Shown: positions 1,468-59,686, counted from the first letter of the stretch. The stretch is DNA of 64,000 nucleotides from Patescibacteria group bacterium (GCA_018969615.1 JAGWYA010000003.1:15038-79037), one strand, 5' to 3'. Notes: generated by a model not told the origin, from the letters alone. Numbers and translations are program-made.

Positions 1468-1475
1468 CCCTTTTA

Positions 1476-1916
1476 TTATACCTGATAGCGCACAAACCGT
1501 GCGATCTTCATGTTCTCGCCTACTTTTGCGATCACGCCTTTCAAAACAGCCTCAACGGTCAGGGTCGGGTCTTTCACGAACGGCTGCTGAAGCAGGTCCT
1601 CAACCGTAGCGGGATCCATGGAAACGATCTGCAGAGAAAGGTCTTTGGCAAGCTGCTGGACCGGCTCTGAGTGCGCAACGAAATCGGTCTCCATGCGCAA
1701 TTCCAACAAGACGCCCACGCGGCCATTGTGGATATAGGCCTCCAAAAGCCCCGCGCCGGTAGCCCGGTCGGCCTTCTTTGCGGCTTTTGCGATACCCTTT
1801 TCGTTCAAAATTTCCTTTGCCTTCGCAAGATCGCCGCCCGCCTCCTCAAGCGCGCGCTTGCAGTCCATGATGCCGGCGCCCGTCTCTTCGCGAAGTTGTA
1901 CGACTGGATTGCTCAT
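1476..1916 (-). CDS. tsf: Elongation factor Ts, short form (~146 aa)
   Basis: MSNPVVQLREETGAGIMDCKRALEEAGGDLAKAKEIL N-terminal UBA-like EF-Ts signature; start moved to ATG at 1916 (upstream part of the track ORF would overlap rpsB). Confidence 0.85.
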   Translation of the reverse strand: MSNPVVQLREETGAGIMDCKRALEEAGGDLAKAKEILNEKGIAKAAKKADRATGAGLLEAYIHNGRVGVLLELRMETDFVAHSEPVQQLAKDLSLQIVSMDPATVEDLLQQPFVKDPTLTVEAVLKGVIAKVGENMKIARFVRYQV

Positions 1917-2710: not shown

Positions 2711-2743
2711 AGGATTAGAGTATATATGATGTCGAAAATTTAA

Positions 2744-3445
2744 TCAAGAGTTCTCCTCCCGCCATGCCTCGATCTGCTTATGGTCGCCCGACAAAAGCGC
2801 TTTCGGTACCCCGGCGACTTTCGACTTTCGACTTTTCACTTTTAACTTCACGCTTTCCGGCTTCGTATAGACCGGATAACTCCCCTTCTTCTCTTCCAGG
2901 GATGCCATCTTTCCCAGTACGCCGGGAACCAGGCGCGAAACCGCTTCGATCACGATCGCGGCCGGCAATTCGCCGCCGGAAAGGACGAAATCGCCGAGCG
3001 AGATCTCCTCATCGGCGACCTGCTGCGCCACGCGCTCATCCACTCCCTCATACCGGCCGCAGATAAAAATAAGCTGATCATATTTTGCGAGGCGATGCGC
3101 TTCTTTCTGGTCGAACTTCTTTCCCCGCAGCGAAAAGAGAATGACCCGTGATCGAGTTGATCTACCGCTTCGCTTGTTCGATCGCTTCACTTGTTTCATT
3201 CGAACAGCTCCATCAGCTCGAACCTTTTGGACCGCTTCCGCGATCGGTTCGGCCTTCAGCACCATCCCCGGACCGCCGCCATACGGCGTATCATCCACTT
3301 TGCGATGCTTGTCGTGCGTAAAATCACGCAAGTTATGTGTCGTGATCGTCAGCAATCCTTTTTCCTGGGCTTTCTTCAGCAGCGATTCCCCGAAATACGA
3401 ATCTAATATATTGGGAAATATGGTAATGATGTCGAATCTTTTCAT
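2744..3445 (-). CDS. trmD: tRNA (guanine37-N1)-methyltransferase TrmD, with a basic insertion (RMKQVKRSNKRSGRSTRSR)
   Basis: MKRFDIITIFP..., PYGGGPGMV, ICGRYEGVDERV trefoil-knot SPOUT motifs. Confidence 0.85.
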   Translation of the reverse strand: MKRFDIITIFPNILDSYFGESLLKKAQEKGLLTITTHNLRDFTHDKHRKVDDTPYGGGPGMVLKAEPIAEAVQKVRADGAVRMKQVKRSNKRSGRSTRSRVILFSLRGKKFDQKEAHRLAKYDQLIFICGRYEGVDERVAQQVADEEISLGDFVLSGGELPAAIVIEAVSRLVPGVLGKMASLEEKKGSYPVYTKPESVKLKVKSRKSKVAGVPKALLSGDHKQIEAWREENS

Positions 3446-3530
3446 ATTGATACTATAGTATGCTTATTCCTTAAAAAAGAAAAACTGCTTGGGGGAACCA
3501 AGCAGTTTGATCAAATGCATCTCTCGCCTC

Positions 3531-3984: not shown

Positions 3985-4293
3985 TTAGGAAGCCGCTTCT
4001 GCGCTTTCTTCACGCGGAGCGCCGTGGCCCCGGGTGGAACCTTCCGGTTCTTCGATCTTGAGGTTCACGCGGGCATTATTGCGAATGCCGACGATCCTCA
4101 AAAGAGAGCGGATGGCCTTTGCGGTCGCGCCCTGCCGTCCTACGACCAGACCCATATCTTTCGGATCGACCGCGAGGGACAAGAGCACGCCCATTTCATC
4201 CACCTTCCGAGTTACCTTCACTTTATCAGGATTCTCGACAATGGATTTGACCAGATATTCAAGAAATTCTTCGTCGTGTGGTTTTTGTGCCAT
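3985..4293 (-). CDS. KH-domain RNA-binding protein (YlqC/UPF0109 family)
   Basis: GLVVGRQGATAKAIRSLL = KH GxxG motif; conserved position between rpsP and trmD. Confidence 0.8.
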   Translation of the reverse strand: MAQKPHDEEFLEYLVKSIVENPDKVKVTRKVDEMGVLLSLAVDPKDMGLVVGRQGATAKAIRSLLRIVGIRNNARVNLKIEEPEGSTRGHGAPREESAEAAS

Positions 4294-4399
4294 AGATGAG
4301 TTTCAGAATTACGTTCGTTACTGCCGACCTTTCATGAATGATAAAAGCATCATACCATAAAAAGGCAAAAAGTCAATTCCCCTCTGCGTGAGGGGAATG

Positions 4400-7084: not shown

Positions 7085-7137
7085 AGGAATAGTATACCGC
7101 ATCAGCCGTTTTGAGGAAAATAAAAACTCCATCTGTA

Positions 7138-10471: not shown

Positions 10472-10636
10472 CTACGCCTGGGCGCCGCGGGTTCCGCAGT
10501 TCACGCAGAGCCGATGCGGAAGCATCGGGGACTTGCAGTTCGCACACACCACGAGATTGATCTTCTTCAATGCCTGGTGCGAGCGGTGCTTGCCTACTTT
10601 GGATTTCGAATGATGTTTTACTGGTACGCCTCCCAT
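10472..10636 (-). CDS. rpmF: 50S ribosomal protein L32 (54 aa; below ORF-track cutoff)
   Basis: Manual translation MGGVPVKHHSKSKVGKHRSHQALKKINLVVCANCKSPMLPHRLCVNCGTRGAQA; the 72-aa track ORF at 10467-10685 is a different frame. Confidence 0.85.
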   Translation of the reverse strand: MGGVPVKHHSKSKVGKHRSHQALKKINLVVCANCKSPMLPHRLCVNCGTRGAQA

Positions 10637-10667
10637 AAGAGTTAAAATTTACTTTTATATAGTTCCT

Positions 10668-10696
10668 ATCATATCCGCTCCGCACCCCCGTGTCAA
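10668..10696 (-). promoter_or_regulatory. Sigma70-like promoter for rpmF: TTGACA-17-TATGAT
   Basis: Minus strand TTGACAcgggggtgcggagcggaTATGAT. Confidence 0.5.
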
Positions 10697-15168: not shown

Positions 15169-15204
15169 ATAAAAATCCCCCGCTCTTGCGGGGGATGTCT
15201 TTTA
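15168..15204. terminator. Bidirectional intrinsic terminator (atcccccgc-tctt-gcgggggat) between dnaE and convergent minus-strand gene
   Basis: GC-rich hairpin with T-runs on both strands. Confidence 0.65.
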
Positions 15205-15642
15205 TTCCAGGACCTCAAAAAAGAAGGTCTTTGCGGCGCCGATCGCCGAAAGATGGTTATAGGTCCGGCCATCCCTGATCACACAGATCGGAGCATGGTC
15301 TTCAAGATGGGAGCAACCGAGCATCAGCCAATTCTTGGCGATATTCCGATCGATCGCCTGCCCTTTCTTCGCCCAGAAGCGGGATTCATTGACGATGAGC
15401 GCCGCGAGGTAGCATTCCTCCACATGCATCATATCCAAATTATCCAACGTCGCCTTCTTATACAGATAGGCGTCAGCCTTGGCAATATTCTTCCCCTGCT
15501 CATCGCCGAGAAGCGTCGCGATCAGCCAGCGACCGACCTTTCTCCGAAGAAAAACGCGGACGGTCTCCGGATCGGCCTTTCGGGCATCGTTCTCGATGTC
15601 TTTAAGGCGATCCTCCAGCCTTTTCCTGTCAGCTTTCTTCAT
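15202..15642 (-). CDS. Hypothetical protein (146 aa)
   Basis: ORF only; no recognisable motifs. Confidence 0.4.
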   Translation of the reverse strand: MKKADRKRLEDRLKDIENDARKADPETVRVFLRRKVGRWLIATLLGDEQGKNIAKADAYLYKKATLDNLDMMHVEECYLAALIVNESRFWAKKGQAIDRNIAKNWLMLGCSHLEDHAPICVIRDGRTYNHLSAIGAAKTFFFEVLE

Positions 15643-15710
15643 GGTCCCTCCCTTGGGAAGTACTTCTTAGAATATCGCAGATTCCTGCCGGGAAATCAAT
15701 AAAAAAGAGC

Positions 15711-16100
15711 CTATGAGGCTCTTTTGCATTTTATAAGCTCCGCCCGGAGCGGATTCTCATCTTTCCGGCGAATGAACAGGCGAGCCCACAGATCAGGCTC
15801 CCATCCGCGCTGCGTCCAGTGGATCCAAAACCCCAAAGCGCACGGCTGGCCGTGGCCTGGATTTTTCGGATATTCTTTCCACCCTGCTCTCCAGTCAGGA
15901 TCGATCACGCCGTCAAAAAGAATGTTTCCTTTCTCTCCGTACACCTTCAAATGATCACCGGAGTCGATGATCTTTAGGGCATCGTAGCCCTCTTTTCCAT
16001 CCTCTTCCAGCGACCACACGATCCCTTCGGTGCCGGTTTCAAAAAACGGATCGAGAACGCCCTTGATCACCTGGGGTTCGTCTTTTTTTGGTGAAGACAT
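15711..16100 (-). CDS. Hypothetical protein (129 aa)
   Basis: ORF only; Trp-rich C-terminal half; no family recognised. Confidence 0.4.
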   Translation of the reverse strand: MSSPKKDEPQVIKGVLDPFFETGTEGIVWSLEEDGKEGYDALKIIDSGDHLKVYGEKGNILFDGVIDPDWRAGWKEYPKNPGHGQPCALGFWIHWTQRGWEPDLWARLFIRRKDENPLRAELIKCKRAS

Positions 16101-16215
16101 TTGTGGACTCCTTTCCTAAACAGCTAAAAATAGCTTACTGCAGATCTTATAAAGAAGCAAAGGCTGCTGCCTTTTTAATTCGTTGAATATAAAAAACTGC
16201 ACACGATGTGCAGTT

Positions 16216-16824
16216 TTATGAAAAAAGGAACGTATGCAAACCATTCCGATTCCCTAAATATAATTTAGGAGAAGCATCTCCGAAATCGCTTATCTTTATT
16301 TTTGCCTCTACACATTTCCATTTCTTCCGATACATCGCCGCCAAACGCTCCATCTGCAGCGGAGTAATAAGATCGTATTCTCTGCGATAAAGGCCGACGA
16401 TATGCGAAGAATTGCCGGCCCGCAGGAAGCGGCTATCCTTTAAACAGGAATCGACTTCTTTCTTAAGCCTGGTCAGAAATCGGTCTGTGTAGCGCTGACC
16501 CAAAAGCATCACAGTGAACTCAACTCCGGAATTATCCTTTTTTAGGAACCAAAGGGAATGAGGCCAACGCATCGTCTTTTCATCGGATACAGTAAAGCGG
16601 ATATTCTGACCCTTTAATGCATAGAGTCGCTCTATCTCCGCGGCAACTTCCTTCGAGATCTTGGACAACTTTCTATCGGGAATAAGAACCGTTATATGCA
16701 CTAAACCGGAAACCGGCGCGTACATATCTCTGCATATCCGAGCTTGCCGCTCAAAGTCCTTCGTAAGGACCGCATCGATCTCATCCTTCAAATAAAGCGC
16801 TAAGGCCTGATCGCTTTTATTCAT
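16216..16824 (-). CDS. Hypothetical protein, possible 2H phosphoesterase (LigT/ThpR-like) fold
   Basis: Two spaced H-x-T/V-x motifs (GLVHITVL and SSHIVGLY) ~100 aa apart as in 2H phosphoesterases; tentative. Confidence 0.3.
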   Translation of the reverse strand: MNKSDQALALYLKDEIDAVLTKDFERQARICRDMYAPVSGLVHITVLIPDRKLSKISKEVAAEIERLYALKGQNIRFTVSDEKTMRWPHSLWFLKKDNSGVEFTVMLLGQRYTDRFLTRLKKEVDSCLKDSRFLRAGNSSHIVGLYRREYDLITPLQMERLAAMYRKKWKCVEAKIKISDFGDASPKLYLGNRNGLHTFLFS

Positions 16825-16920
16825 TGAATGCCTCTCTAATTCAAGTTGCTATATGAAAGAATACCAAGGAAAAAATATAAATTCAATAAAAAATATCCGA
16901 CGTTTGTCGGATATTAATGA

Positions 16921-17268
16921 TCAGGGACGGACGAATGCCTGCGCGGCGGCGAGGATCTCTTCCAGGTCGGCAATGGATGCCGCATGACGGATCGCCGTAC
17001 GCGGAACTTTATCTCGGAGGACGCGGTTCCGCTCGAGGACATGACTTCGCTCTTCGAGCCACTCCTTTGCCTTTTCGACGCCATATCCCTCAACCAAGAT
17101 CCTAGTGATCTGATGAAGATAGCGGATGCGCATCTCAACCGCAAGACGCACGGACGGCCATTTCGGCCAGTCATTTCGGGCGCAGCCGGCGCAATAAAGC
17201 ATCATCTTCCGTCCGAGCCGTCTTTCCACGTACGTAGCGATGCTCGAGAGCGATTCGCGAGTGTCCAT
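16921..17268 (-). CDS. Hypothetical protein (115 aa)
   Basis: ORF followed by hairpin terminator at 16889-16916. Confidence 0.4.
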   Translation of the reverse strand: MDTRESLSSIATYVERRLGRKMMLYCAGCARNDWPKWPSVRLAVEMRIRYLHQITRILVEGYGVEKAKEWLEERSHVLERNRVLRDKVPRTAIRHAASIADLEEILAAAQAFVRP

Positions 17269-17339
17269 GCTATGTCCTTTTGTCAGAACGTGCTGTTTTC
17301 AGCATAGCATCATAGTTCCGTCCGCTTCAAGATATTTCC

Positions 17340-17368
17340 TTGAGCTCGGTGCCGGAATCCGATATAAT
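17340..17368 (+). promoter_or_regulatory. Promoter for thrS: TTGAGC-17-TATAAT with -10 box 7 nt upstream of ATG (leaderless transcript likely)
   Basis: ttgagc at 17340-17345, tataat at 17363-17368, ATG at 17376. Confidence 0.55.
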
Positions 17369-17375
17369 CAAACGC

Positions 17376-19127
17376 ATGAGCGATAAACTCCCGCAAGCAT
17401 CCCTGGATGAGATCCGTCATTCGCTGGCCCATCTTTTAGCGGCGGCGGTCCTCCAAAAATACCCCGACACCAAGCTCGGCATCGGTCCGGTCATCGACAA
17501 CGGCTTTTATTATGATTTCCTGTTCTCCCAGCCGGTCACGGAAGACGACCTGAAGGATCTCCAGAAGGACATGCGCAAGCTTGCCCACCGGCATTTGGAC
17601 TTCACCGGCGAGAAACTGACCGCTGAGGGCGCAAAGAAAATGTTCAAGGATCAGCCGTTCAAGGTGGAGCTGATCGAAGAGTTCTCCAAGGACGGCAAAG
17701 AGCTCACCGCCTACCATACCGGCGATGTCTTCACCGATCTCTGCCGCGGCGGACACGTAACAAACACGAAACAGATCGATCCGGAGAGCTTCAAGCTTTC
17801 CCGCCTTGCCGGAGCCTACTGGCGCGGCAGCGAAAAGAACCCGATGCTCACCCGTATCTACGGACTCGCCTTCGCTTCCAAAAAAGAATTGGAGGCTTAT
17901 GAGAAGATGATGGAAGAAGCAAAAAAACGCGATCATCGCAAGCTCGGCAAAGACCTCGGTCTCTTTACGATCATCGATGAGATCGGCCCGGGACTCCCCT
18001 TGTTCTATCCGAAGGGTACGATCCTCCGCCGGCTTGTTGAGAATTATATTACCGACCTCCAGGAGAAGCGCGGTTATGTGCCGATCTGGATCCCGCACAT
18101 CACCAAGGGCAAGCTCTATGAGATCTCAGGCCATCTCCAAAAATACGACGCCATGTACCCGCCGATGCAGCTTCCGGATGAGGACGCCTACTACCTCAAG
18201 CCGATGAACTGCCCGCATTTCATGATGCTCTATAACACGCTCCCTCATTCCTACCGCGAACTGCCGATCCGCTACACCTCGACGACCACAAACTACCGCT
18301 ATGAAAAATCCGGCGAACTGACCGGACTGACCCGCGTCCGCGCGCTGACCCAGGATGACTGCCATGTCTTCACCCGTCCGGACCAGATCGAAGCGGAGAT
18401 CAACCTGATGCTTGATATGATCAATGAAGCGTACACGACCTTCGGCTTTTCCGATTTCTGGGTCCGCATCTCCACGCATGATCCGGAGAATAAAGAGAAA
18501 TACATCGGCGACAAAACGATCTGGGCGGAATCCGAAGCGGCGCTTGAAAAGCTTATTAAGAACCGCGGATGGAAGCATGAGATCGGCGTCGGCGAAGCGG
18601 CGTTTTACGGCCCGAAACTGGATTTCATCCTCAAAGACGTCCTTGGCCGCGAATGGCAGCTTTCGACCATTCAGCTCGATATGAACCTCCCTAAGCGTTT
18701 TAACCTTGAATATACGGATGCCGACGGCACCAAGAAGCAGCCGGTCGTCATCCATCGGGCGATCCTCGGCTCAACCGAGCGATTCCTGGCGATCCTGATC
18801 GAACATTTCGGCGGCGCATTCCCGCTCTGGCTCGCGCCGGTCCAGGTCGCGGTCATCCCGGTATCGGAAAAGCATATCGACTACGCCCGCGAGATCGCCA
18901 AAAAGCTTCCCGGATTCCGCGTTCAGATCGCCGAAGAGAACGAAACGCTTGGCAAGAAGATCCGCGGAGCCGAGATGCAGAAGATCCCCTACGTCCTGGT
19001 TGTCGGAGACAAAGAGATCGAACAGAATGCGGTCAATGTCCGGCACTATAAAGAAGGAGTTCTCGGGACGCTCTCGCTCGATCAACTTTCCGCGAAACTT
19101 AGGGAAGAGATCGAAAAGAAGGGATAA
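17376..19127 (+). CDS. thrS: Threonyl-tRNA synthetase (lacks N-terminal TGS domain)
   Basis: HSLAHLLAAAV editing-domain HxxxH, class II motifs (MNCPHFMMLY, TTTNYRYEKSGELTGLTRVRALTQDDCHVF); start moved to ATG 17376 downstream of promoter. Confidence 0.85.
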   Translation: MSDKLPQASLDEIRHSLAHLLAAAVLQKYPDTKLGIGPVIDNGFYYDFLFSQPVTEDDLKDLQKDMRKLAHRHLDFTGEKLTAEGAKKMFKDQPFKVELIEEFSKDGKELTAYHTGDVFTDLCRGGHVTNTKQIDPESFKLSRLAGAYWRGSEKNPMLTRIYGLAFASKKELEAYEKMMEEAKKRDHRKLGKDLGLFTIIDEIGPGLPLFYPKGTILRRLVENYITDLQEKRGYVPIWIPHITKGKLYEISGHLQKYDAMYPPMQLPDEDAYYLKPMNCPHFMMLYNTLPHSYRELPIRYTSTTTNYRYEKSGELTGLTRVRALTQDDCHVFTRPDQIEAEINLMLDMINEAYTTFGFSDFWVRISTHDPENKEKYIGDKTIWAESEAALEKLIKNRGWKHEIGVGEAAFYGPKLDFILKDVLGREWQLSTIQLDMNLPKRFNLEYTDADGTKKQPVVIHRAILGSTERFLAILIEHFGGAFPLWLAPVQVAVIPVSEKHIDYAREIAKKLPGFRVQIAEENETLGKKIRGAEMQKIPYVLVVGDKEIEQNAVNVRHYKEGVLGTLSLDQLSAKLREEIEKKG

Positions 19128-19903: not shown

Positions 19904-19920
19904 AAGGATATTATACCATC

Positions 19921-21375
19921 TTATAGCTCTTTTTGCAAGAGGTCCTTCAGGACCGCTGGGTTCCCCCTTCCTTTCAGGGCCGCCATAGATTTCCCAACCA
20001 TAAACTGGAGCGCATTCATCTTCCCCTTCTTATAATCCTCCACCGCCTTCGGGTTTTCCTTGATAACCGCCTTGATCACATCCAAAAGCTCGCCTTCGCC
20101 TGAGACCTGCCCCAAGCCTTCTTCCTTCACCAGATTCCGCGGATCAGCTCCTGACTCGAACATGCGCGCCAAAAGGTCCTTTGCGGTGCGGCTGTTGATC
20201 TCTTTCTTTGAAAGAAGGTCCATCAGGTCGGCAAAGTTCTCCTGCGTCACCTTCAGGTCCGCGAACGAAATACCGGCATTCGCCATCAATCCCTTCAGGT
20301 CCGTATTCAAATAGTTGAACAAAAGCGCCACCTGCGCCGCATCAAGCTGATGTTGGAGATCCTCTTCCCATTCCGAGATCGCTTCCTCAAAATACTCGGA
20401 CTCGGCGCGATCCTCCACGAGGATGTTCGCCTGCTCAGCGGAAAGGCCGAGCTGCTCTTTAAAGCGCGTGCGTTTCGCGTCCGGCGATTCCGGTACGGCG
20501 CGCTCAAGCGCCGCAAGATCGAATGCCGACGGGTCCTGCGGAGGGATATCAGGCTCCGGAAAATAGCGGTAGTCCTGCGCCTCTTCTTTCGAGCGCTGAG
20601 ACACGGTCCTCTGCTTGACGTCGTCCCAGCCGCGGGTTTCCTGTTTGATGCGCTCGCCCGCCTCTAAAAGATCGGTTTGGCGCTTGATCTCGTAATTGAT
20701 CGCATCCTCGATCGCCCGGAACGAGTTCAGGTTCTTGATCTCCACCTTCGTTCCCAGCGCATCGGTCGCGCTGATCGAAATATTCGCGTCCGCACGCATC
20801 TGTCCGCGGTCGAGATCAGCCTCGGAAACACCTGCATAGCGAAGGATCAGCTGCAGCTCCTTTGCAAAGGCCACCGCTTCTTTTGCGCTATGCATATCCG
20901 GATCGGTCACCAACTCCATCAGCGGTACGCCGCCGCGGTTAAAATCAACAAGTGACGACTTTCCATCATCGGCGTGAACGAGCTTGCCCGCGTCTTCCTC
21001 AAGATGGACATGATGGATCTGAACCGTTTTCGGCGATCCAAGACGCGCTTCCACGTTAATGGTTCCGCCGAGGACCGTAGGATGCTCAAGTTGCGTGATC
21101 TGGTATCCCTTCGGAAGGTCTGGATAAAAATAGTTCTTCCGGTCAAAAGCAAAGACCTCATTGATCTTCCCTCCGAGCGCGAACCCAATGGTGATCATAT
21201 GCTCAAGCGCTTTCTTGTTCGGGGTCGGCAAAGCGCCGGGATGGCCCAAGCACACCGGACAGACATTCGTGTTCGGATGCTTTTCATCCGGATCGTTCGG
21301 ACAACCGCAAAACATCTTAGTTGCGGTCTTCAGCTCCGCATGGACCTCAAGACCGATGGTCGGCGCGTATTTCAT
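19921..21375 (-). CDS. gatB: Asp-tRNA(Asn)/Glu-tRNA(Gln) amidotransferase subunit B
   Basis: MKYAPTIGLEVHAELKTATKMFCGCPND N-terminus, GatB/YqeY C-terminal domain. Confidence 0.9.
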   Translation of the reverse strand: MKYAPTIGLEVHAELKTATKMFCGCPNDPDEKHPNTNVCPVCLGHPGALPTPNKKALEHMITIGFALGGKINEVFAFDRKNYFYPDLPKGYQITQLEHPTVLGGTINVEARLGSPKTVQIHHVHLEEDAGKLVHADDGKSSLVDFNRGGVPLMELVTDPDMHSAKEAVAFAKELQLILRYAGVSEADLDRGQMRADANISISATDALGTKVEIKNLNSFRAIEDAINYEIKRQTDLLEAGERIKQETRGWDDVKQRTVSQRSKEEAQDYRYFPEPDIPPQDPSAFDLAALERAVPESPDAKRTRFKEQLGLSAEQANILVEDRAESEYFEEAISEWEEDLQHQLDAAQVALLFNYLNTDLKGLMANAGISFADLKVTQENFADLMDLLSKKEINSRTAKDLLARMFESGADPRNLVKEEGLGQVSGEGELLDVIKAVIKENPKAVEDYKKGKMNALQFMVGKSMAALKGRGNPAVLKDLLQKEL

Positions 21376-22682: not shown

Positions 22683-22724
22683 AGTTCCAGTATAGAGGAT
22701 TTTAGAGCGTCTTTGTAGGCTTTA

Positions 22725-22761
22725 AATAAAAATAAAACTGCCCCGATCTAGATCGGGGCAG
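22725..22761 (-). terminator. Intrinsic terminator after tmk (ctgccccgatc-ta-gatcggggcag, T-run on minus strand)
   Basis: Seen in sequence. Confidence 0.65.
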
Positions 22762-23506
22762 TGGTCGGACTGATCAGGCTCACGGCCTGTTCCAGTACTT
22801 TTTCAATGGGAGCATTGGCATCCAACAGCACCGTTTTCGGAAAAAGATTCTTTCGGAAGATAAGCGCACGATAGTTCTTATGGATCTGGATAAGACGCTC
22901 GAGCTTCTCCTCAAAAACATCGATGACCTTCCCGGACGACTTGAGACGCGCCATAGCGATCTTTGCGTCGAGATCGAGCATGATCATCAGATCGGGCTGC
23001 CAATCCGCCGGTGTAAGACCGAACGAATTAAACGCTTTCATCTGCCATTCGACCATCTTCTCCCTGTCCACGCCGCCGGAACCTCCATAGGCAAGCGTGC
23101 TGGCAAAGTAGCGGTCCTGCAGGACCATCTTCCCCGACGCACGGGCGGGGCCGATCCGTTCGACGAGGTCGTAGACGCGGTCGGCCATGAACAGCAACTG
23201 CATATCGAGCTCGCTGATCTTTTGGCCCAGCTTCACTTGATCAAGGACATGCGCGATATACAGCCAGAAATCCTCGCCCTCGCGGCCGTAGCCCTTCTTC
23301 GTGTATTCGAGGGCCTGCTCCAGGTCATGAGCCGGGAACGGCCGGCGCTCGTACACCGAGCGGATCACCGCGCCGAACAAAAGATGGGTCGGCTCGACAT
23401 TGCAGAACGCATCCGGAAATCGCTTCTCCAGAAGCTTATGGATCGTGCTCTTGCCCGATCCGGAAATACCCTCCAGAACGACGAACTTCCCCGTGGATGT
23501 GGTCAT
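22748..23506 (-). CDS. tmk: Thymidylate kinase-like nucleotide kinase
   Basis: KFVVLEGISGSGKST P-loop; start at ATG 23506; TATACT -10 box 7 nt upstream of ATG. Confidence 0.7.
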   Translation of the reverse strand: MTTSTGKFVVLEGISGSGKSTIHKLLEKRFPDAFCNVEPTHLLFGAVIRSVYERRPFPAHDLEQALEYTKKGYGREGEDFWLYIAHVLDQVKLGQKISELDMQLLFMADRVYDLVERIGPARASGKMVLQDRYFASTLAYGGSGGVDREKMVEWQMKAFNSFGLTPADWQPDLMIMLDLDAKIAMARLKSSGKVIDVFEEKLERLIQIHKNYRALIFRKNLFPKTVLLDANAPIEKVLEQAVSLISPTTAPI

Positions 23507-23572
23507 GGTCTTAGTATACTCCTCTATGCAAAGTTGCTTCCTCAAAAATACCATGCCGGAGCGGGTGCTGTC

Positions 23573-23604
23573 CAGAAAAAAATTCCCCCGTTTGGGGGAA
23601 TTTT
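23573..23604 (-). terminator. Terminator after rplK (aattcccccg-ttt-gggggaatt with flanking T/A runs)
   Basis: Seen in sequence. Confidence 0.65.
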
Positions 23605-24030
23605 TTAATCAACGATCTCGATACCCATGTTCCGCGCGGTACCGGCGATGACTTTCATTGCCGCGTCCACGTCATAGGCGTTCAGGTCAACCATCTTGCG
23701 TTCAGCGATCTTGCGGAGGTCTTCTTTCGTGACCTTACCCACCTTCGTCTTCAGCGGATCACCGGATCCTTTCTCGATACCGGCCGCTTTCTTCAGCAAT
23801 GCCGATGCCGGCGGGGTCTTGAGGCGGAAATCGAAGCTGCGGTCCTCATAGATCGTGATCTCTGCCGGAACCACGTCACCCATCATATCCTTGGTCGCGT
23901 CGTTGAACTTCTTGCAGAAATCCTGAATGTTCACGCCGTGCTGACCGAGGGCCGGACCGATCGGCGGAGCCGGATTCGCCTTCCCTGCTTCGATCTGCAA
24001 TTTCAATATTGTTTTGATTGGTTTTGCCAT
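23605..24030 (-). CDS. rplK: 50S ribosomal protein L11
   Basis: [35 protein letters not shown] canonical uL11. Confidence 0.92.
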
Positions 24031-24082
24031 ATGTTTGATGAGATCGGACAGGAGAGGCGCCCGTCGTACCCGTACTTTAAAT

Positions 24083-24670
24083 TTATAACTTCTGGATCTG
24101 TAACGAATCCAATTCTACCACCGTATCACGTCCGAAGATCGGCACCAAGACCTTCACCTTCGCGCGCTCGTTATCAACTTCGGAAACCTTCGCTTCATAA
24201 TCCTTGAACGGCCCGTCGATGACCTTCACGACATCGCCCACCGTCACATCGATCTTGAACTTCTTTTCCTCGCCGGTTCCCATTCTCGCCATCAGCATAT
24301 CGATCTCATCCTTGGACAGCGGGGTCGGGGTCACCGAGTCAGGACCGACGAAGCCGGTCACTCGCGGCGTATTACGCACCACGTACCAGGAATCTTCCGT
24401 CAGGACCATATCCACCAGCACATAGCCCGGATAGATCTTTTCCGCGACCGTACGGCGCTTGCCGTTCTTGATCTTGATCTTGGTCTCCTTCGGAACGAGG
24501 ACATTGAAGATCTTATCGTTCATGGACAGCGAGTCCACGCGCTGCTTCAGATACCGGGTCACGGCATCTTCATAGCCGGAATACGTATGCACGGCATACC
24601 AGTGCCGCGCCTTATCCTTGATCTCAACCGCCTGCTTTTTTTCCTCTTTATGAGTAGATCCTTCTGCCAT
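24083..24670 (-). CDS. nusG: Transcription termination/antitermination factor NusG
   Basis: [17 protein letters not shown] domain, C-terminal KOW ([18 protein letters not shown]). Confidence 0.9.
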
Positions 24671-24671
24671 A

Positions 24672-24860
24672 TTAGCGAAGCACGATTAATTGGAGGAGAT
24701 ACGTAAAGAACGCATCGAACGAGCCCAAAAGAGCCGCAACCAATAATGAAATACCGATCACGACGATCGTTAAACGGATCGTCTCTTCGCGCGTCGGCCA
24801 ATTCACCCGCGTCAGCTCCTGGCGGGATTCCCCTAAAAAGGATGATAATTTCGTAAACAT
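24672..24860 (-). CDS. secE: Preprotein translocase subunit SecE
   Basis: 62 aa, single C-terminal TM helix, KVNWPTREE motif; secE-nusG-rplK order. Confidence 0.85.
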   Translation of the reverse strand: MFTKLSSFLGESRQELTRVNWPTREETIRLTIVVIGISLLVAALLGSFDAFFTYLLQLIVLR

Positions 24861-24868
24861 TGTTATAT

Positions 24869-24897
24869 AGTATATCCACTCATCGCCCGAGTGTCAA
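24869..24897 (-). promoter_or_regulatory. Consensus sigma70 promoter for secE-nusG-rplK: TTGACA-17-TATACT, -10 box 8 nt upstream of secE ATG
   Basis: Minus strand TTGACActcgggcgatgagtggaTATACTatataacaATG. Confidence 0.65.
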
Positions 24898-24913: not shown

Positions 24914-26854
24914 CTAAATATCGAGGTTCTTCACCGAAAGGGCGCGGGCCTGGATGAAGTTCTTGCGCGGGCCTACTTCCTGTCCCATTAAGATGTCGAA
25001 CAGTTTATCCGCAGCAACGGCATCGTCAATGGTCACCTGCCGCAAGACGCGAAATTCAGGGTTCATGGTCGTTTCCCACAGCTGCTCCGGGTTCATCTCA
25101 CCGAGACCTTTGTAGCGCTGGATACTGATGCCGGATTCTTTTTCCTTTGCACCCTTAGAGAGCTCACTGACCGCCCGTTCTTTTTCCGAATCGCTGAATA
25201 CGTAGCGGAAATCCTTTCCTTTCTGCACTTTGAACAGCGGCGGCTGGGCGATGTAGATATTGCCGTTCGTGATCAGCTGCTGGAAGTACCGGTAAAAAAG
25301 CGTAAGCAGAAGCGTACGGATATGCGCGCCGTCCACATCGGCATCGGTCATGAGGACGATCTTGTGATACCGGAGGTTCGTGATATCGAAGGACTCCGCG
25401 ATCGCGGTTCCGAGTGCAACGACAAGCGCTTTGATCTCCTTGTTCACCAGCATCTTATCAATGCGGGATTTTTCCACATTCAAGATCTTCCCTTTAAGCG
25501 GAAGGATCGCCTGCGTTCTGCGGTCACGCCCCTGTTTTGCGCTGCCGCCTGCGCTGTCACCCTCAACGATGAACAGTTCCGATTCTCCCGGGTCGCGGGA
25601 ACTGCAATCGGCAAGCTTTCCCGGAAGCGTCAGCCCCTCAAGCACGCCCTTTCGGAGGATGGTCTCCTTTGCCGCCTTGGCGGCCTTACGGGCCTTCACC
25701 GCGAGCAAGCATTTCTCGATAACGCGGCGGGCATCTGCCGGATGGCGTTCCAGCCAGTCCTTCATCGCCTCATTCACGACCGACTCTACCGCGGTACGCG
25801 CCGGCGGATTCCCTAAACGAGCCTTGGTCTGTCCTTCGAACTGCGGTTCGCTCAGGCGCACCGATATGATCACCGATAATCCCTCACGCACGTCATCGCC
25901 GGTCAGGTTGTCATCCTTGCCTTTGATATACCCCTCAGCGCTCGCATAATCGTTCAGCGTACGGGTCAGCGCCGACCGGAAACCGGTCAGATGCATACCG
26001 CCGTCCGGCGTGTAAATATTGTTCGCAAAGCTCAGCTCCTGGGTCTCAATATCCTCGTTGTACACGAATGACGCCTCAACTTCGATCTCATCAAGCGATT
26101 TATGGACGTAGAACGGATCGTTCTGGATCAGTTTGTTCCCTTCCGTAATGTATTTGATGAACGAAAGCAGTCCGCCGTCAAAATAGAATCCCTGATAGAG
26201 CGCGGGAAGTTTACGATGGTCGATGATCTCGATCTTCACGCCCTTGGTCAGGAATGCCTGCTGGCGAAGATGGTCGACAATGCGCTTCAGGTCCCATTCG
26301 ATCTTCGCAAAGATCTCGGCATCGGGAAGGAACGTCACGCGGGTTCCGGTCCGCGACGTCTTCACCGTCTTCTTCACTTTATATTGCGGCTTGCCGCGCT
26401 TGTATTCCTGCACCCAGACATACCCTTCGCGGGATACTTCCACCATCACCCATTCGGAAAGCGCGTTCACGACGGAAACACCGACGCCGTGAAGACCTCC
26501 GGAAACCTTGTACGAACCACCGCCGAACTTGCCGCCGGCGTGCAGCGTCGTAAGAACCGTTTCCAGCGCCGATTTCTTGGTCTGCTTATGCGTCTCAACC
26601 GGAATACCGCGGCCGTCGTCATCAACGCTGATCTTATTCCCCGGAAGCAGCTCCACGCGGATATTATGCGCATACCCGCCCATCGCTTCGTCGATGGAGT
26701 TATCCACGACCTCCCAGATCAAGTGATGCAAACCGGCCGAATCGGTCGTACCGATGTACATGCCCGGACGCTTCCGCACCGGATCAAGCCCCTCCAAAAC
26801 ATAAATATCCTTTGCTGAATATGAACTTCCTTTTCCCTCCGGTTCTTTTGCCAT
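24914..26854 (-). CDS. gyrB: DNA gyrase subunit B
   Basis: GLHHLIWEVVDNSIDEAMGGY GHKL ATPase motif, TOPRIM EGDSAGGSAKQGRDR; 646 aa. Confidence 0.92.
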   Translation of the reverse strand: MAKEPEGKGSSYSAKDIYVLEGLDPVRKRPGMYIGTTDSAGLHHLIWEVVDNSIDEAMGGYAHNIRVELLPGNKISVDDDGRGIPVETHKQTKKSALETVLTTLHAGGKFGGGSYKVSGGLHGVGVSVVNALSEWVMVEVSREGYVWVQEYKRGKPQYKVKKTVKTSRTGTRVTFLPDAEIFAKIEWDLKRIVDHLRQQAFLTKGVKIEIIDHRKLPALYQGFYFDGGLLSFIKYITEGNKLIQNDPFYVHKSLDEIEVEASFVYNEDIETQELSFANNIYTPDGGMHLTGFRSALTRTLNDYASAEGYIKGKDDNLTGDDVREGLSVIISVRLSEPQFEGQTKARLGNPPARTAVESVVNEAMKDWLERHPADARRVIEKCLLAVKARKAAKAAKETILRKGVLEGLTLPGKLADCSSRDPGESELFIVEGDSAGGSAKQGRDRRTQAILPLKGKILNVEKSRIDKMLVNKEIKALVVALGTAIAESFDITNLRYHKIVLMTDADVDGAHIRTLLLTLFYRYFQQLITNGNIYIAQPPLFKVQKGKDFRYVFSDSEKERAVSELSKGAKEKESGISIQRYKGLGEMNPEQLWETTMNPEFRVLRQVTIDDAVAADKLFDILMGQEVGPRKNFIQARALSVKNLDI

Positions 26855-26944
26855 AATTTAAAAAAAGGCCGCGCCCTTACTGATTATTTTTCCTTATCAG
26901 TATACCAAAAATACCCCCTTCACGCAAACAAAAAACGCACGGGT

Positions 26945-29283: not shown

Positions 29284-29702
29284 TATTTTTCTCCTTTTCT
29301 CGAGGCTCTACCAAAAATAGCGGTTACTCGATTTGAAGCAAAATCTAAAAAGTCATTTCGCGCTTTTTGCTCTTCTCGTTCGCCCTCAGAAGTCATGGCA
29401 TCAACTTTTCTTCGACACGCCCTAATGGCAGCAGTGCATTCTTGAAATGCCTCCATCGTATCGGCATGCATGATCGCATTTAAAATCCGAGCCTCTTCGA
29501 TATTAATAAGATCAGGCTGCATTCTTTTCAGTGCATAGGCATAGTGCATTTCGGGAGTCTCTGGATAAGGAGCTCCTTCTGCGTCTGCTTTTTTGATGAT
29601 TTCTTGAAGTCTTATGATCTCCGCGCGCGCAGCCTCAATAAGCTTCGCCTCCTGTTCGGCTGCGGACGCTTTTTCCGGATGATTTTTTTCAGGATGTTCC
29701 AT
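29283..29702 (-). CDS. Hypothetical protein (139 aa) inserted between pheS and pheT, translationally coupled to both
   Basis: 2-nt gap to pheS stop, 1-nt overlap with pheT start. Confidence 0.5.
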   Translation of the reverse strand: MEHPEKNHPEKASAAEQEAKLIEAARAEIIRLQEIIKKADAEGAPYPETPEMHYAYALKRMQPDLINIEEARILNAIMHADTMEAFQECTAAIRACRRKVDAMTSEGEREEQKARNDFLDFASNRVTAIFGRASRKGEK

Positions 29703-32242: not shown

Positions 32243-32286
32243 AGATACATCGTATCACAAAAACACCCGCTATCCGGATGTTTTTG

Positions 32287-36202: not shown

Positions 36203-36219
36203 ATGTATAGGATACAGGG

Positions 36220-38295
<2,076 letters not shown>

Positions 38296-38465: not shown

Positions 38466-38948
38466 CTAGGGGGGGGTAGTTGTTGCCGGAACCTGGCGGC
38501 TGAAGGTCAGATCGAACGCACGGGCTGAATTATTGGAAAGTCCCTTCGATTGAATATCAACGGTCTGTGTCGTGCTCGCGGTCGACGACGTGCACGTCGT
38601 CGTAAACGTCGCATTGTTCGTCAATGCCGGCGCAGGACACGCACCGCCGGCTGGACAATCCTGGCATACCTCACCGTCTACTTTAAAGAACTTATACAGC
38701 CGCCACTCGATCCCCGCATCCGCCGCAAAAACAGCCTTGGTCGAATTAACCGTATCCGTCGTCTGCCGCACCTGGTTCAGCATCAAATAGCCGGCGATCG
38801 CGGTTGCGCCAAGAAGCGTTCCTGAGAGCGCCAAAACCGTGATCAGCATCACTTGTCCTGAGCGCTTCGGTTGTTCCTCAACATAAACCCGCCGAAGGAC
38901 TTGTCCTGATCGAGGACGAAAAATGTTCATAGTCTTATTATACGGCAA
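38466..38948 (-). CDS. PilX-like minor pilin / pilus-associated protein; gene ends in a C8 homopolymer (plus-strand G8 at 38469-38476)
   Basis: N-terminal RSGQVMLITVLALSGTLLGATAIAGYLML...AVFAADAGIE resembles PilX_N domain; Thr/Ser-rich C-terminus ending PATTTPP. Confidence 0.5.
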   Translation of the reverse strand: MPYNKTMNIFRPRSGQVLRRVYVEEQPKRSGQVMLITVLALSGTLLGATAIAGYLMLNQVRQTTDTVNSTKAVFAADAGIEWRLYKFFKVDGEVCQDCPAGGACPAPALTNNATFTTTCTSSTASTTQTVDIQSKGLSNNSARAFDLTFSRQVPATTTPP

Positions 38949-41962: not shown

Positions 41963-42012
41963 AAAAAATAAATATCACCCCTAACAATGATCAAATATAG
42001 TATACTATAAAT

Positions 42013-49718: not shown

Positions 49719-49750
49719 ATTAAAAATCTACCATTTCTTATGCAATAAAA

Positions 49751-49897: not shown

Positions 49898-50028
49898 AAG
49901 ATCTCCTTTGAGGCTTTAAAGTACTGCAGCTGCGAGTAATAATGCCAAAGCATCACCCCGCAACACTTACTTTATACACCTTGATCTTTATTTTTTCAAG
50001 AGAAAAAACTCGTAAAATAGTATTGGAC

Positions 50029-50547
50029 CTACGGCAACGTGCGGGCACTCACCGTGGTCTGCAAATTCACTACTGGATCAGTGAACGGCGAGCCGGCAGC
50101 CCCTGCCTGAAGCACAATAGTAATGCGCGGAGGATACGGATTCCCTGCGGTTCCGGTAAAAAGAACGAACTGCAGGTTCTTCACCAGCACATTATCAGCC
50201 GTGATCGGCTCAAACGTGGTCCCGCCATCCGCACTGCGTTCGATCGCGGATGTCGCGCTATTCACGCGATAGACCACAGAATCGTTTTGCGCATTCATAA
50301 ACTGAAGCTCGCCGTTCACGACGGAAAAGCCCTGTCCGGTCCGAACCTCACGCGCGATCTGCTCGATCGCCGAGCTGCTATTTCCTTCTGCGGCCAGGAT
50401 CGCAACGGTCTCATGCTGGGTCCGCAGAATATGAATGAACGCCCCCGTCGTGATCGCGATCACGACAAGAAAAAGCCCCATGGCAACGATCATTTCCACA
50501 AGCGTAAATCCTGACTCCCGACGAATTTTTGAGAAAAAAGAAAGCAT
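50029..50547 (-). CDS. Type IV pilin-like/pseudopilin protein
   Basis: Prepilin leader ...KIRRESG|FTLVEM; start set at ATG 50547. Confidence 0.7.
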   Translation of the reverse strand: MLSFFSKIRRESGFTLVEMIVAMGLFLVVIAITTGAFIHILRTQHETVAILAAEGNSSSAIEQIAREVRTGQGFSVVNGELQFMNAQNDSVVYRVNSATSAIERSADGGTTFEPITADNVLVKNLQFVLFTGTAGNPYPPRITIVLQAGAAGSPFTDPVVNLQTTVSARTLP

Positions 50548-50551
50548 GATG

Positions 50552-51046
50552 TTATCGCCAGTTATAGAAATAATCTTCGGCATCGACATTGAACGCCCCG
50601 CCGCCGCGCGTCGTCCAGGAAACATAAGAGGTCACTTTGATCTCATCCGCGGAGATCGTATCGATCGTGATCTTTCGGATATAGGAGGTCGTATTCCCCG
50701 TAGTGTACTGATAGAAACCGGTCACCGGATCGAAAAGCAACGGACTTCCGGTGAACGGGCTCAGTGCGGTCGCGCTGTAATCCCCCTCATAATCCCCCGC
50801 CGTGATCCCGATGTTCCACGGCTGGTTCTGTAAAACGTTCTTGTCGATCATATTCTTCACGATCTCGATCCCTTCTGAAGCAAGGTTGGAACCGACGTAC
50901 TGGCTGGTAACGATCTGCGTTTCACCCAGCGAGCTCGAGGTCAGTGAAAAAATACCGAGAAGCCCTATGATCGCGATCGTGATCGCGATCGTGGCCTCGA
51001 CCATCATCTGACCCTTTCGATCACGGAGATAGGAAAAGAAGTTCAT
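50552..51046 (-). CDS. Pseudopilin/minor pilin (atypical +1 Gln: RKG|QMMVEA)
   Basis: Leader + hydrophobic helix with Glu at +5. Confidence 0.6.
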   Translation of the reverse strand: MNFFSYLRDRKGQMMVEATIAITIAIIGLLGIFSLTSSSLGETQIVTSQYVGSNLASEGIEIVKNMIDKNVLQNQPWNIGITAGDYEGDYSATALSPFTGSPLLFDPVTGFYQYTTGNTTSYIRKITIDTISADEIKVTSYVSWTTRGGGAFNVDAEDYFYNWR

Positions 51047-55322: not shown

Positions 55323-55356
55323 ACCTCTATTGTACACTATGCCGAAAGAAAACGCT

Positions 55357-59647: not shown

Positions 59648-59686
59648 AGCTTGCGCGGCGAAAGCGCTTAGTTCTATTATATCAGA

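Follow-up and report, generated by a model that had tools for sequence, protein, structure and literature searches.

Does a -10 box that lies only 6 to 8 nt upstream of a start codon signify a leaderless mRNA, whose 5' UTR spans 0 to 5 nt, and how common is this arrangement in the genome that carries it? The question is raised by thrS in a 64-kb window (the whole stretch of DNA analyzed here, 52% GC), for which an earlier note had listed several promoters of this kind and had called translation in the organism predominantly leaderless. The thrS locus comprises the following features.

17340..17345 (+): thrS -35 candidate TTGAGC, 17 nt from the -10 hexamer; promoter match 10 of 12
17363..17368 (+): thrS -10 candidate TATAAT, 7 nt before ATG 17376
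17376..19127 (+): thrS coding sequence from the trimmed ATG, 583 aa; TIGR00418 at 692 bits, profile from residue 14

The window comes from an uncultivated, ultrasmall bacterium of the Parcubacteria/CPR and contains a type IV pilus cluster in addition to housekeeping genes. When ThrS was compared with 185,579 species genomes, the top matches were all to Patescibacteria/CPR bins of the Parcubacteria type, with identities of up to 85%; these bins bear labels such as Harrisonbacteria, Paceibacterota and Sungbacteria. Exact-protein look-ups with ThrS and DnaE returned no record. An Rfam scan of the window identified seven tRNAs and no rRNA, T-box or other leader RNA. All gene counts given below refer to a curated set of 68 genes in about 51 transcription units, drawn from one 64-kb window rather than a whole genome; tsf (1476 to ~1925) and a minus-strand open reading frame (ORF) at 50029-50625 lie outside the 68-gene table.

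-10 boxes adjoin start codons far more often than expected by chance

We defined a box as a TANNNT hexamer that matches TATAAT in at least 4 of 6 positions at a spacing of 6 to 8 nt from the start codon. Such a box preceded 23 of the 68 curated genes (34%), corresponding to about 45% of the transcription units, and the start codon was ATG in all 23 candidates. Dinucleotide shuffles (n = 2000) yielded 3.2±1.8 genes with a box and never more than 9, and positional controls on the same genes gave 1 to 10. With stricter boxes (at least 5 of 6), 15 curated genes were recovered, compared with 1.1±1.0 in shuffles. The spacing was 6 nt in 15 genes, 7 nt in 4 and 8 nt in 4. Within the window, then, -10 matches beside the start codon are commoner than in shuffled sequence. 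The sites include the following.

1475..1480 (-): -10 candidate TATAAT of a 112-aa protein, 7 nt before ATG 1467; overlaps the end of tsf
2719..2747 (-): rpsB candidate promoter TTGATT (2747-2742)-17-TATACT (2724-2719), 8 nt before ATG 2710
3452..3457 (-): trmD -10 candidate TATAGT, 6 nt before ATG 3445; just past a terminator at 3508-3482
7091..7096 (-): smc -10 candidate TATACT, 6 nt before trimmed ATG 7084 (MYLKRL); past the ftsH terminator at 7149-7125
19910..19938 (-): candidate promoter TTGCAA-17-TG-n-TATAAT of an 87-aa protein, 6 nt before ATG 19903
22689..22694 (-): -10 candidate TATACT of an HD-domain protein gene (followed by gatB), 6 nt before ATG 22682; past a terminator at 22762-22737
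23513..23518 (-): tmk -10 candidate TATACT, 6 nt before trimmed ATG 23506; past the rplK terminator at 23600-23584
24869..24897 (-): secE candidate promoter TTGACA (24897-24892)-17-TATACT (24874-24869), 8 nt before ATG 24860; 11 of 12 match
32249..32254 (-): xth extended -10 candidate TG-a-TACGAT, 6 nt before ATG 32242
36209..36237 (-): gatC candidate promoter TTGAAA-17-TATCCT (gatC-gatA unit), 6 nt before ATG 36202
38937..38942 (-): -10 candidate TATAAT of a 154-aa protein, 6 nt before ATG 38930; past a GC-rich hairpin and T-tract
42001..42006 (+): -10 candidate TATACT of a PEMT-like methyltransferase, 6 nt before ATG 42013
49725..49730 (-): extended -10 candidate TG-g-TAGATT of an M16 peptidase, 6 nt before ATG 49718; past a terminator at 49777-49751
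55329..55334 (-): pilT -10 candidate TACAAT, 6 nt before trimmed ATG 55322
59675..59680 (+): comFC -10 candidate TATTAT, 6 nt before ATG 59687

The secE promoter heads a secE-nusG-rplK unit, and the -35 hexamer of rpsB overlaps the trmD stop codon. The thrS, secE, rpsB and trmD examples had been described earlier exactly as they read here; for tmk the TATACT box is present as described, at a spacing of 6 nt and not the 7 nt given before.

The starts of smc, tmk, thrS, pilT and the gene at 38930 were picked with knowledge of the box, and two scans that make no use of these choices reproduced the spacing peak of the curated starts. A gene-model-free scan, which took any match to TATAAT of at least 5 of 6 upstream of an ATG that began a reading frame of 60 codons or more, found 11, 5 and 2 boxes at spacings of 6, 7 and 8 nt, whereas the other spacings (0 to 40) averaged about 1.5. 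At mechanically called first-start ORFs, TANNNT occurred 12, 4 and 3 times at these spacings, compared with about 1.9 elsewhere. A box was found before 1.6% of internal in-frame ATGs, and strict boxes before GTG or TTG occurred in the window only inside genes or on antisense strands. In an identical analysis of a 50-kb Escherichia coli control, none of the 70 annotated genes had a box, and the spacings showed no peak. Together, these counts confirm that the leaderless-type -10/ATG arrangement is real and well above chance.

The boxes have the context of promoters

The canonical gap between the -10 hexamer and the transcription start (+1) is 6 nt, and thus at the modal spacing the predicted start falls on the A of the ATG. 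Of the 23 boxes, 6 had a -35 hexamer 16 to 18 nt away that agreed with the consensus in 4 or more of 6 positions, whereas 9.9% of such boxes across the whole window did (p=0.02), and an extended -10 motif (TGn) accompanied 5 of 23, compared with a background of 5.3% (p=0.0065). In all, 10 boxes had a recognizable -35 or TGn partner and 13 had neither. Terminator-like hairpins end 25 to 45 nt before the ATG of trmD, smc, the HD-domain gene, tmk and the M16 peptidase gene, so a fresh transcript has to begin inside that gap, and in each of these five cases the gap holds a -10 candidate adjoining the ATG. In two of these cases, the HD-domain gene and tmk, a second candidate box farther upstream emerged from the promoter scan and would give a short leader.

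We regard leaderless transcription and translation as the best explanation for the -10 boxes beside ATG, with a probability of roughly 0.8. The hexamers would be sigma-70-type -10 promoter elements, from which RNA polymerase would initiate on the A of the start codon or no more than 1 to 2 nt away. The resulting mRNA would carry neither a 5' leader nor a Shine-Dalgarno (SD) site, and, as is the case in Actinobacteria and Deinococcus, the ribosome with initiator tRNA would bind directly to its 5'-terminal AUG. This route would serve about one-third of the genes and nearly half of the transcription units, mostly housekeeping ones, alongside translational coupling and leadered initiation with or without an SD site. 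We infer the transcription start from the 6-nt distance between box and ATG and from the terminators just upstream; the mode of ribosome initiation is likewise predicted from the DNA sequence.

The hexamer might instead be an AT-rich, non-SD ribosome-binding or enhancer element on leadered or polycistronic mRNAs, comparable to that of group B in the GeneMarkS-2 classification (Bacteroidetes/FCB group; PMC6028130), which the window resembles in its many SD-less genes and the AT-rich context near their starts. Six of the 23 boxes (those of orf112, hyp218, ubiA290, hyp87, gatC and lnt) lie only 8 to 18 nt past the preceding gene and could act inside a polycistronic RNA; every gene class shows an excess of T at -1 and of A at -3, indicating that some SD-independent context exists; and about 14 leadered units lack an SD site. 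However, the group B motif, which does not belong to a promoter, precedes first and internal genes alike (PMC6028130), whereas we found a box in 0 of 12 tightly coupled genes (gap of at most 7 nt to the upstream gene). The signal also has the form of positions T1, A2 and T6 of a -10 box rather than general A-richness: in a motif-free analysis of base composition, T, A and T were enriched at -12, -11 and -7. It has a single spacing peak, at 6 nt, it is enriched for -35 and TGn partners upstream, and several boxes are directly preceded by terminators. In light of these differences, we consider a non-SD element unlikely.

If the boxes are promoters of leaderless mRNAs, those that overlap the final codons of the gene before them imply that a highly compact genome is divided into numerous small units, each transcribed on its own. 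Weak folding over the first 36 nt of the ORF was not specific to the leaderless class because all genes are less structured at their 5' ends.

Two divergent gene pairs have overlapping, partly palindromic -10 boxes: pilM/comFC (59648-59686, 39 nt), which share TATTAT/TATAAT, and HAL/PEMT (41963-42012, 50 nt), which share TATAGTATACTATA. In both pairs, one partner is predicted to be leaderless and the other leadered.

Start codons are corroborated by protein profiles and orthologues

The boxes could also belong to ordinary promoters of leadered mRNAs whose real start codons lie farther downstream, the adjacent ATG being incidental. Start calling is error-prone in this window, as the mechanical ORF starts are wrong for thrS, smc, tmk, ftsH, rnc and pilM. 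Nevertheless, the protein profiles of TrmD, Xth and SMC begin within 1 to 3 residues of the proposed ATG. Those of TrmD and Xth each begin at residue 2 to 3; in the long ORF the SMC_N profile does not start until residue 18, pointing to ATG 7084 and the canonical MYLKRL, and the ATG of the long ORF (7132) sits within the stem of the ftsH terminator hairpin. Orthologues of secE, smc, tmk, the HD-domain gene (HD434) and rpsB align from residue 1, the orthologue starts of thrS align with ATG 17376, and the trimmed tmk start is backed by an orthologue in a related locus (L003) and by the rplK terminator. RpsB has an N-terminal extension of about 25 residues before the start of its S2 profile (2635-2710, -), and this extension is conserved in the sole close relative from a metagenome scan, which is 80% identical (L081, 783-860). 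Together with the low frequency of boxes before internal ATGs, these alignments make downstream starts very improbable.

The earlier note had proposed that the starts of seven genes needed trimming on account of adjoining boxes. This is borne out for thrS, smc and tmk, and it is plausible for pilT; the mechanical starts of these four genes are too long. No -10 box adjoins the trimmed start of ftsH, rnc or pilM, and these genes are therefore not leaderless candidates.

Shine-Dalgarno sites and leadered genes coexist with the leaderless class

By start type, the 68 genes comprise 23 leaderless candidates, 14 SD-led first genes, about 14 SD-less leadered units and 17 internal genes. SD words of at least 5 nt at 3 to 12 nt from the start occurred in 12 genes, compared with 2.9±1.7 in shuffles, and those of at least 6 nt in 6 genes, compared with 0.7; the enriched words include AAGGAG, AGGAGG and GGAGG. 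SD words are thus enriched, yet the SD-less leadered units and most internal genes do without them. With 34% of genes and about 45% of units in the leaderless class and SD words well above chance, "predominantly leaderless" is too strong a description. SD-led genes had further been described as accessory. Most do encode hypothetical proteins, but the core genes ftsH (AGGTG-4-ATG) and pheT also have SD sites; the ATG of pheT overlaps the upstream stop codon.

29284..29300 (-): pheT Shine-Dalgarno AAGGAG, 7 nt before ATG 29283; a counter-example

The enrichment of SD words argues indirectly for an intact anti-SD. The organism thus probably keeps a working anti-SD, and we predict that the 3' end of its 16S rRNA retains ...CACCUCCUU. 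No 16S gene was found in the window (Rfam) or in 80 related loci.

The SD-less leadered units include rpmF, khpA, gyrB, rplK, ligA and dnaE. In rpmF (10636-10696, -), a near-perfect promoter, TTGACA-17-TATGAT, lies 31 nt before the ATG, and the leader has no SD site. A similar leader without SD was observed in khpA (4293-4376, -), where TTGACT-16-TG-n-TATGAT lies about 55 nt before the ATG. These two leaders suggest a third, SD-independent mode of leadered initiation. Two genes that we counted as leadered, rpmG and rplS, have strong promoters at a spacing of 10 nt, which would give a leader of 3 to 4 nt. Upstream of gyrB (26854-26910, -), an extended -10 sequence, TG-g-TATACT, lies about 45 nt from the gene without an SD site, and a hairpin and T-tract at 26878-26864 reach to within 10 nt of the ATG; this hairpin could be an attenuator or a regulatory leader.

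A T immediately before the start ATG was seen in 42 of 68 genes (62%), compared with 20% of all ATGs in the window and 17% in the E. coli control. It occurred in every gene class and reached 73% among genes with neither an SD site nor a -10 box; in relatives the frequency was 46%, compared with 20% (578 starts, L001-L080). This T may reflect an SD-independent start context or the tendency of transcription to start on a purine (+1) preceded by a pyrimidine (-1).

The arrangement is conserved in relatives

Among the thrS orthologues, 73 had a usable 5' end, and in 46 of these TANNNT lay 5 to 9 nt before the aligned ATG; control offsets gave 7 to 18. In the closest relatives (loci L001, L003, L005, L008 and L009), secE, smc, tmk and the HD-domain gene share the start ATG and a box 6 to 8 nt upstream. 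The rpsB orthologue in L081 reads TTGATT-17-TATAAT-8-ATG, with an 8-nt spacer that differs in sequence and is equal in length. Among 908 long ORFs from 80 loci, a strict box was located at 6 to 8 nt in 12.7%, and control spacings gave 3.5%. Among the 20 closest loci the frequency reached 18%, as it does in the window, and control spacings gave 3%. A leaderless promoter architecture had been put forward as a genome-level trait; it is common in the window, close relatives carry the same signal, and the data support its being a trait of the lineage.

A chance origin of the boxes, for which upstream regions of 62% A+T and the loose TANNNT pattern would give some room, is rejected by the dinucleotide shuffles and positional controls, by the empty E. 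coli control and by this conservation in orthologues.

The architecture matches GeneMarkS-2 group C

In group C of the GeneMarkS-2 classification, a Pribnow box lies 6 to 8 nt from the start in 25 to 50% of operons and SD sites are used elsewhere; this type accounts for 90% of Actinobacteria and 97% of Deinococcus-Thermus, with Mycobacterium tuberculosis, Streptomyces and Deinococcus deserti as examples (PMC6028130). The window resembles group C in its TANNNT box at 6 to 8 nt, a peak recovered in three independent scans, and in the proportion of units concerned (23 of about 51); SD words mark some of its genes, though not the SD-less leadered units or most internal genes. It differs in lineage, being from Patescibacteria/Parcubacteria and not from Actinobacteria or Deinococcus-Thermus, and in its large additional class of SD-less leadered genes. 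Its mid-range GC content also sets it apart from the code-11 group C genomes, which are mostly high-GC (10.1101/2022.07.25.500264), and its leaderless state is a prediction from sequence. Some code-4 Mycoplasma also belong to group C, with 30 to 60% of transcripts predicted to be leaderless (10.1101/2022.07.25.500264); they resemble the present case in their small, reduced genomes and sizeable predicted leaderless share, but they are low-GC and of unrelated lineage, and TGA closes genes here (e.g., trmD). The window is distinguished from group B by its -10 signatures, -35 and TGn partners and upstream terminators, and by the absence of boxes from tightly coupled genes.

Thus, the architecture matches the GeneMarkS-2 group C type in an apparently uL1-lacking lineage of Parcubacteria. 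A full-text literature search found no description of leaderless mRNAs in CPR/Patescibacteria; leaderless organization as such is already known, and the new part is its occurrence in this lineage, for which we found no documentation.

The lineage probably lacks uL1

Downstream of rplK in the window (22748-24860) come a terminator and tmk instead of rplA, which is likewise absent after rplK in 19 relatives; it is present in 5 more distant loci. The lack of rplA behind rplK places the window and these 19 relatives with the uL1-lacking Parcubacteria (PMC9297842), to which the organism appears to belong. The anti-SD motif was detected in only 48% of Parcubacteria and is mostly missing in the uL1-lacking group, where CCTCCT often went undetected (Tsurumaki et al. 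2022, PMC9297842). That study covers rRNA and ribosomal proteins, whereas our data concern mRNA architecture, and SD-like words are enriched in the window. The leaderless signal was 14.9% in loci without rplA and 5.6% in loci with rplA, of which there are only 5 (Fisher p=0.048); a link between the signal and uL1 loss is suggestive only.

We propose tentatively, and with more doubt than confidence, that leaderless initiation could be the default for housekeeping operons across uL1-lacking Parcubacteria, perhaps in much of the CPR, and could be tied to reduced ribosomes and an eroding SD/anti-SD interaction. Were this so, the lineage would be the third large leaderless-rich lineage of bacteria after Actinobacteria and Deinococcus-Thermus, with a bearing on whether leaderless initiation is ancestral. 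The leaderless signal itself offers a functional context for the reported but unexplained absence of uL1 and of a detectable anti-SD motif in many Parcubacteria (PMC9297842). SD-based gene finders would systematically miscall starts in CPR metagenome bins, and for expression tools in Patescibacteria a -10 box 6 nt before the ATG may be the native expression signal.

Other features of the window

In the first 20 kb, we counted 54 terminator-like hairpins, compared with 24 in shuffles (about twofold). Four hypothetical genes lie in a row at 15200-17270 (-), each apparently monocistronic with its own terminator and an SD-type site. Between 40000 and 50000, the GC content is 45 to 49%, compared with about 53%, and codon bias is weak; the genes there encode HAL, an Lnt-like protein, two UbiA-family proteins, an AMP-binding protein and an M16 peptidase, and this stretch may have been acquired horizontally. 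The plus-strand ORF at 49942-50514 is probably spurious. The minus-strand ORF at 50029-50625 contains an N-terminal methylation (pilin) motif at residues 35 to 59, which places its true start downstream of 50625.
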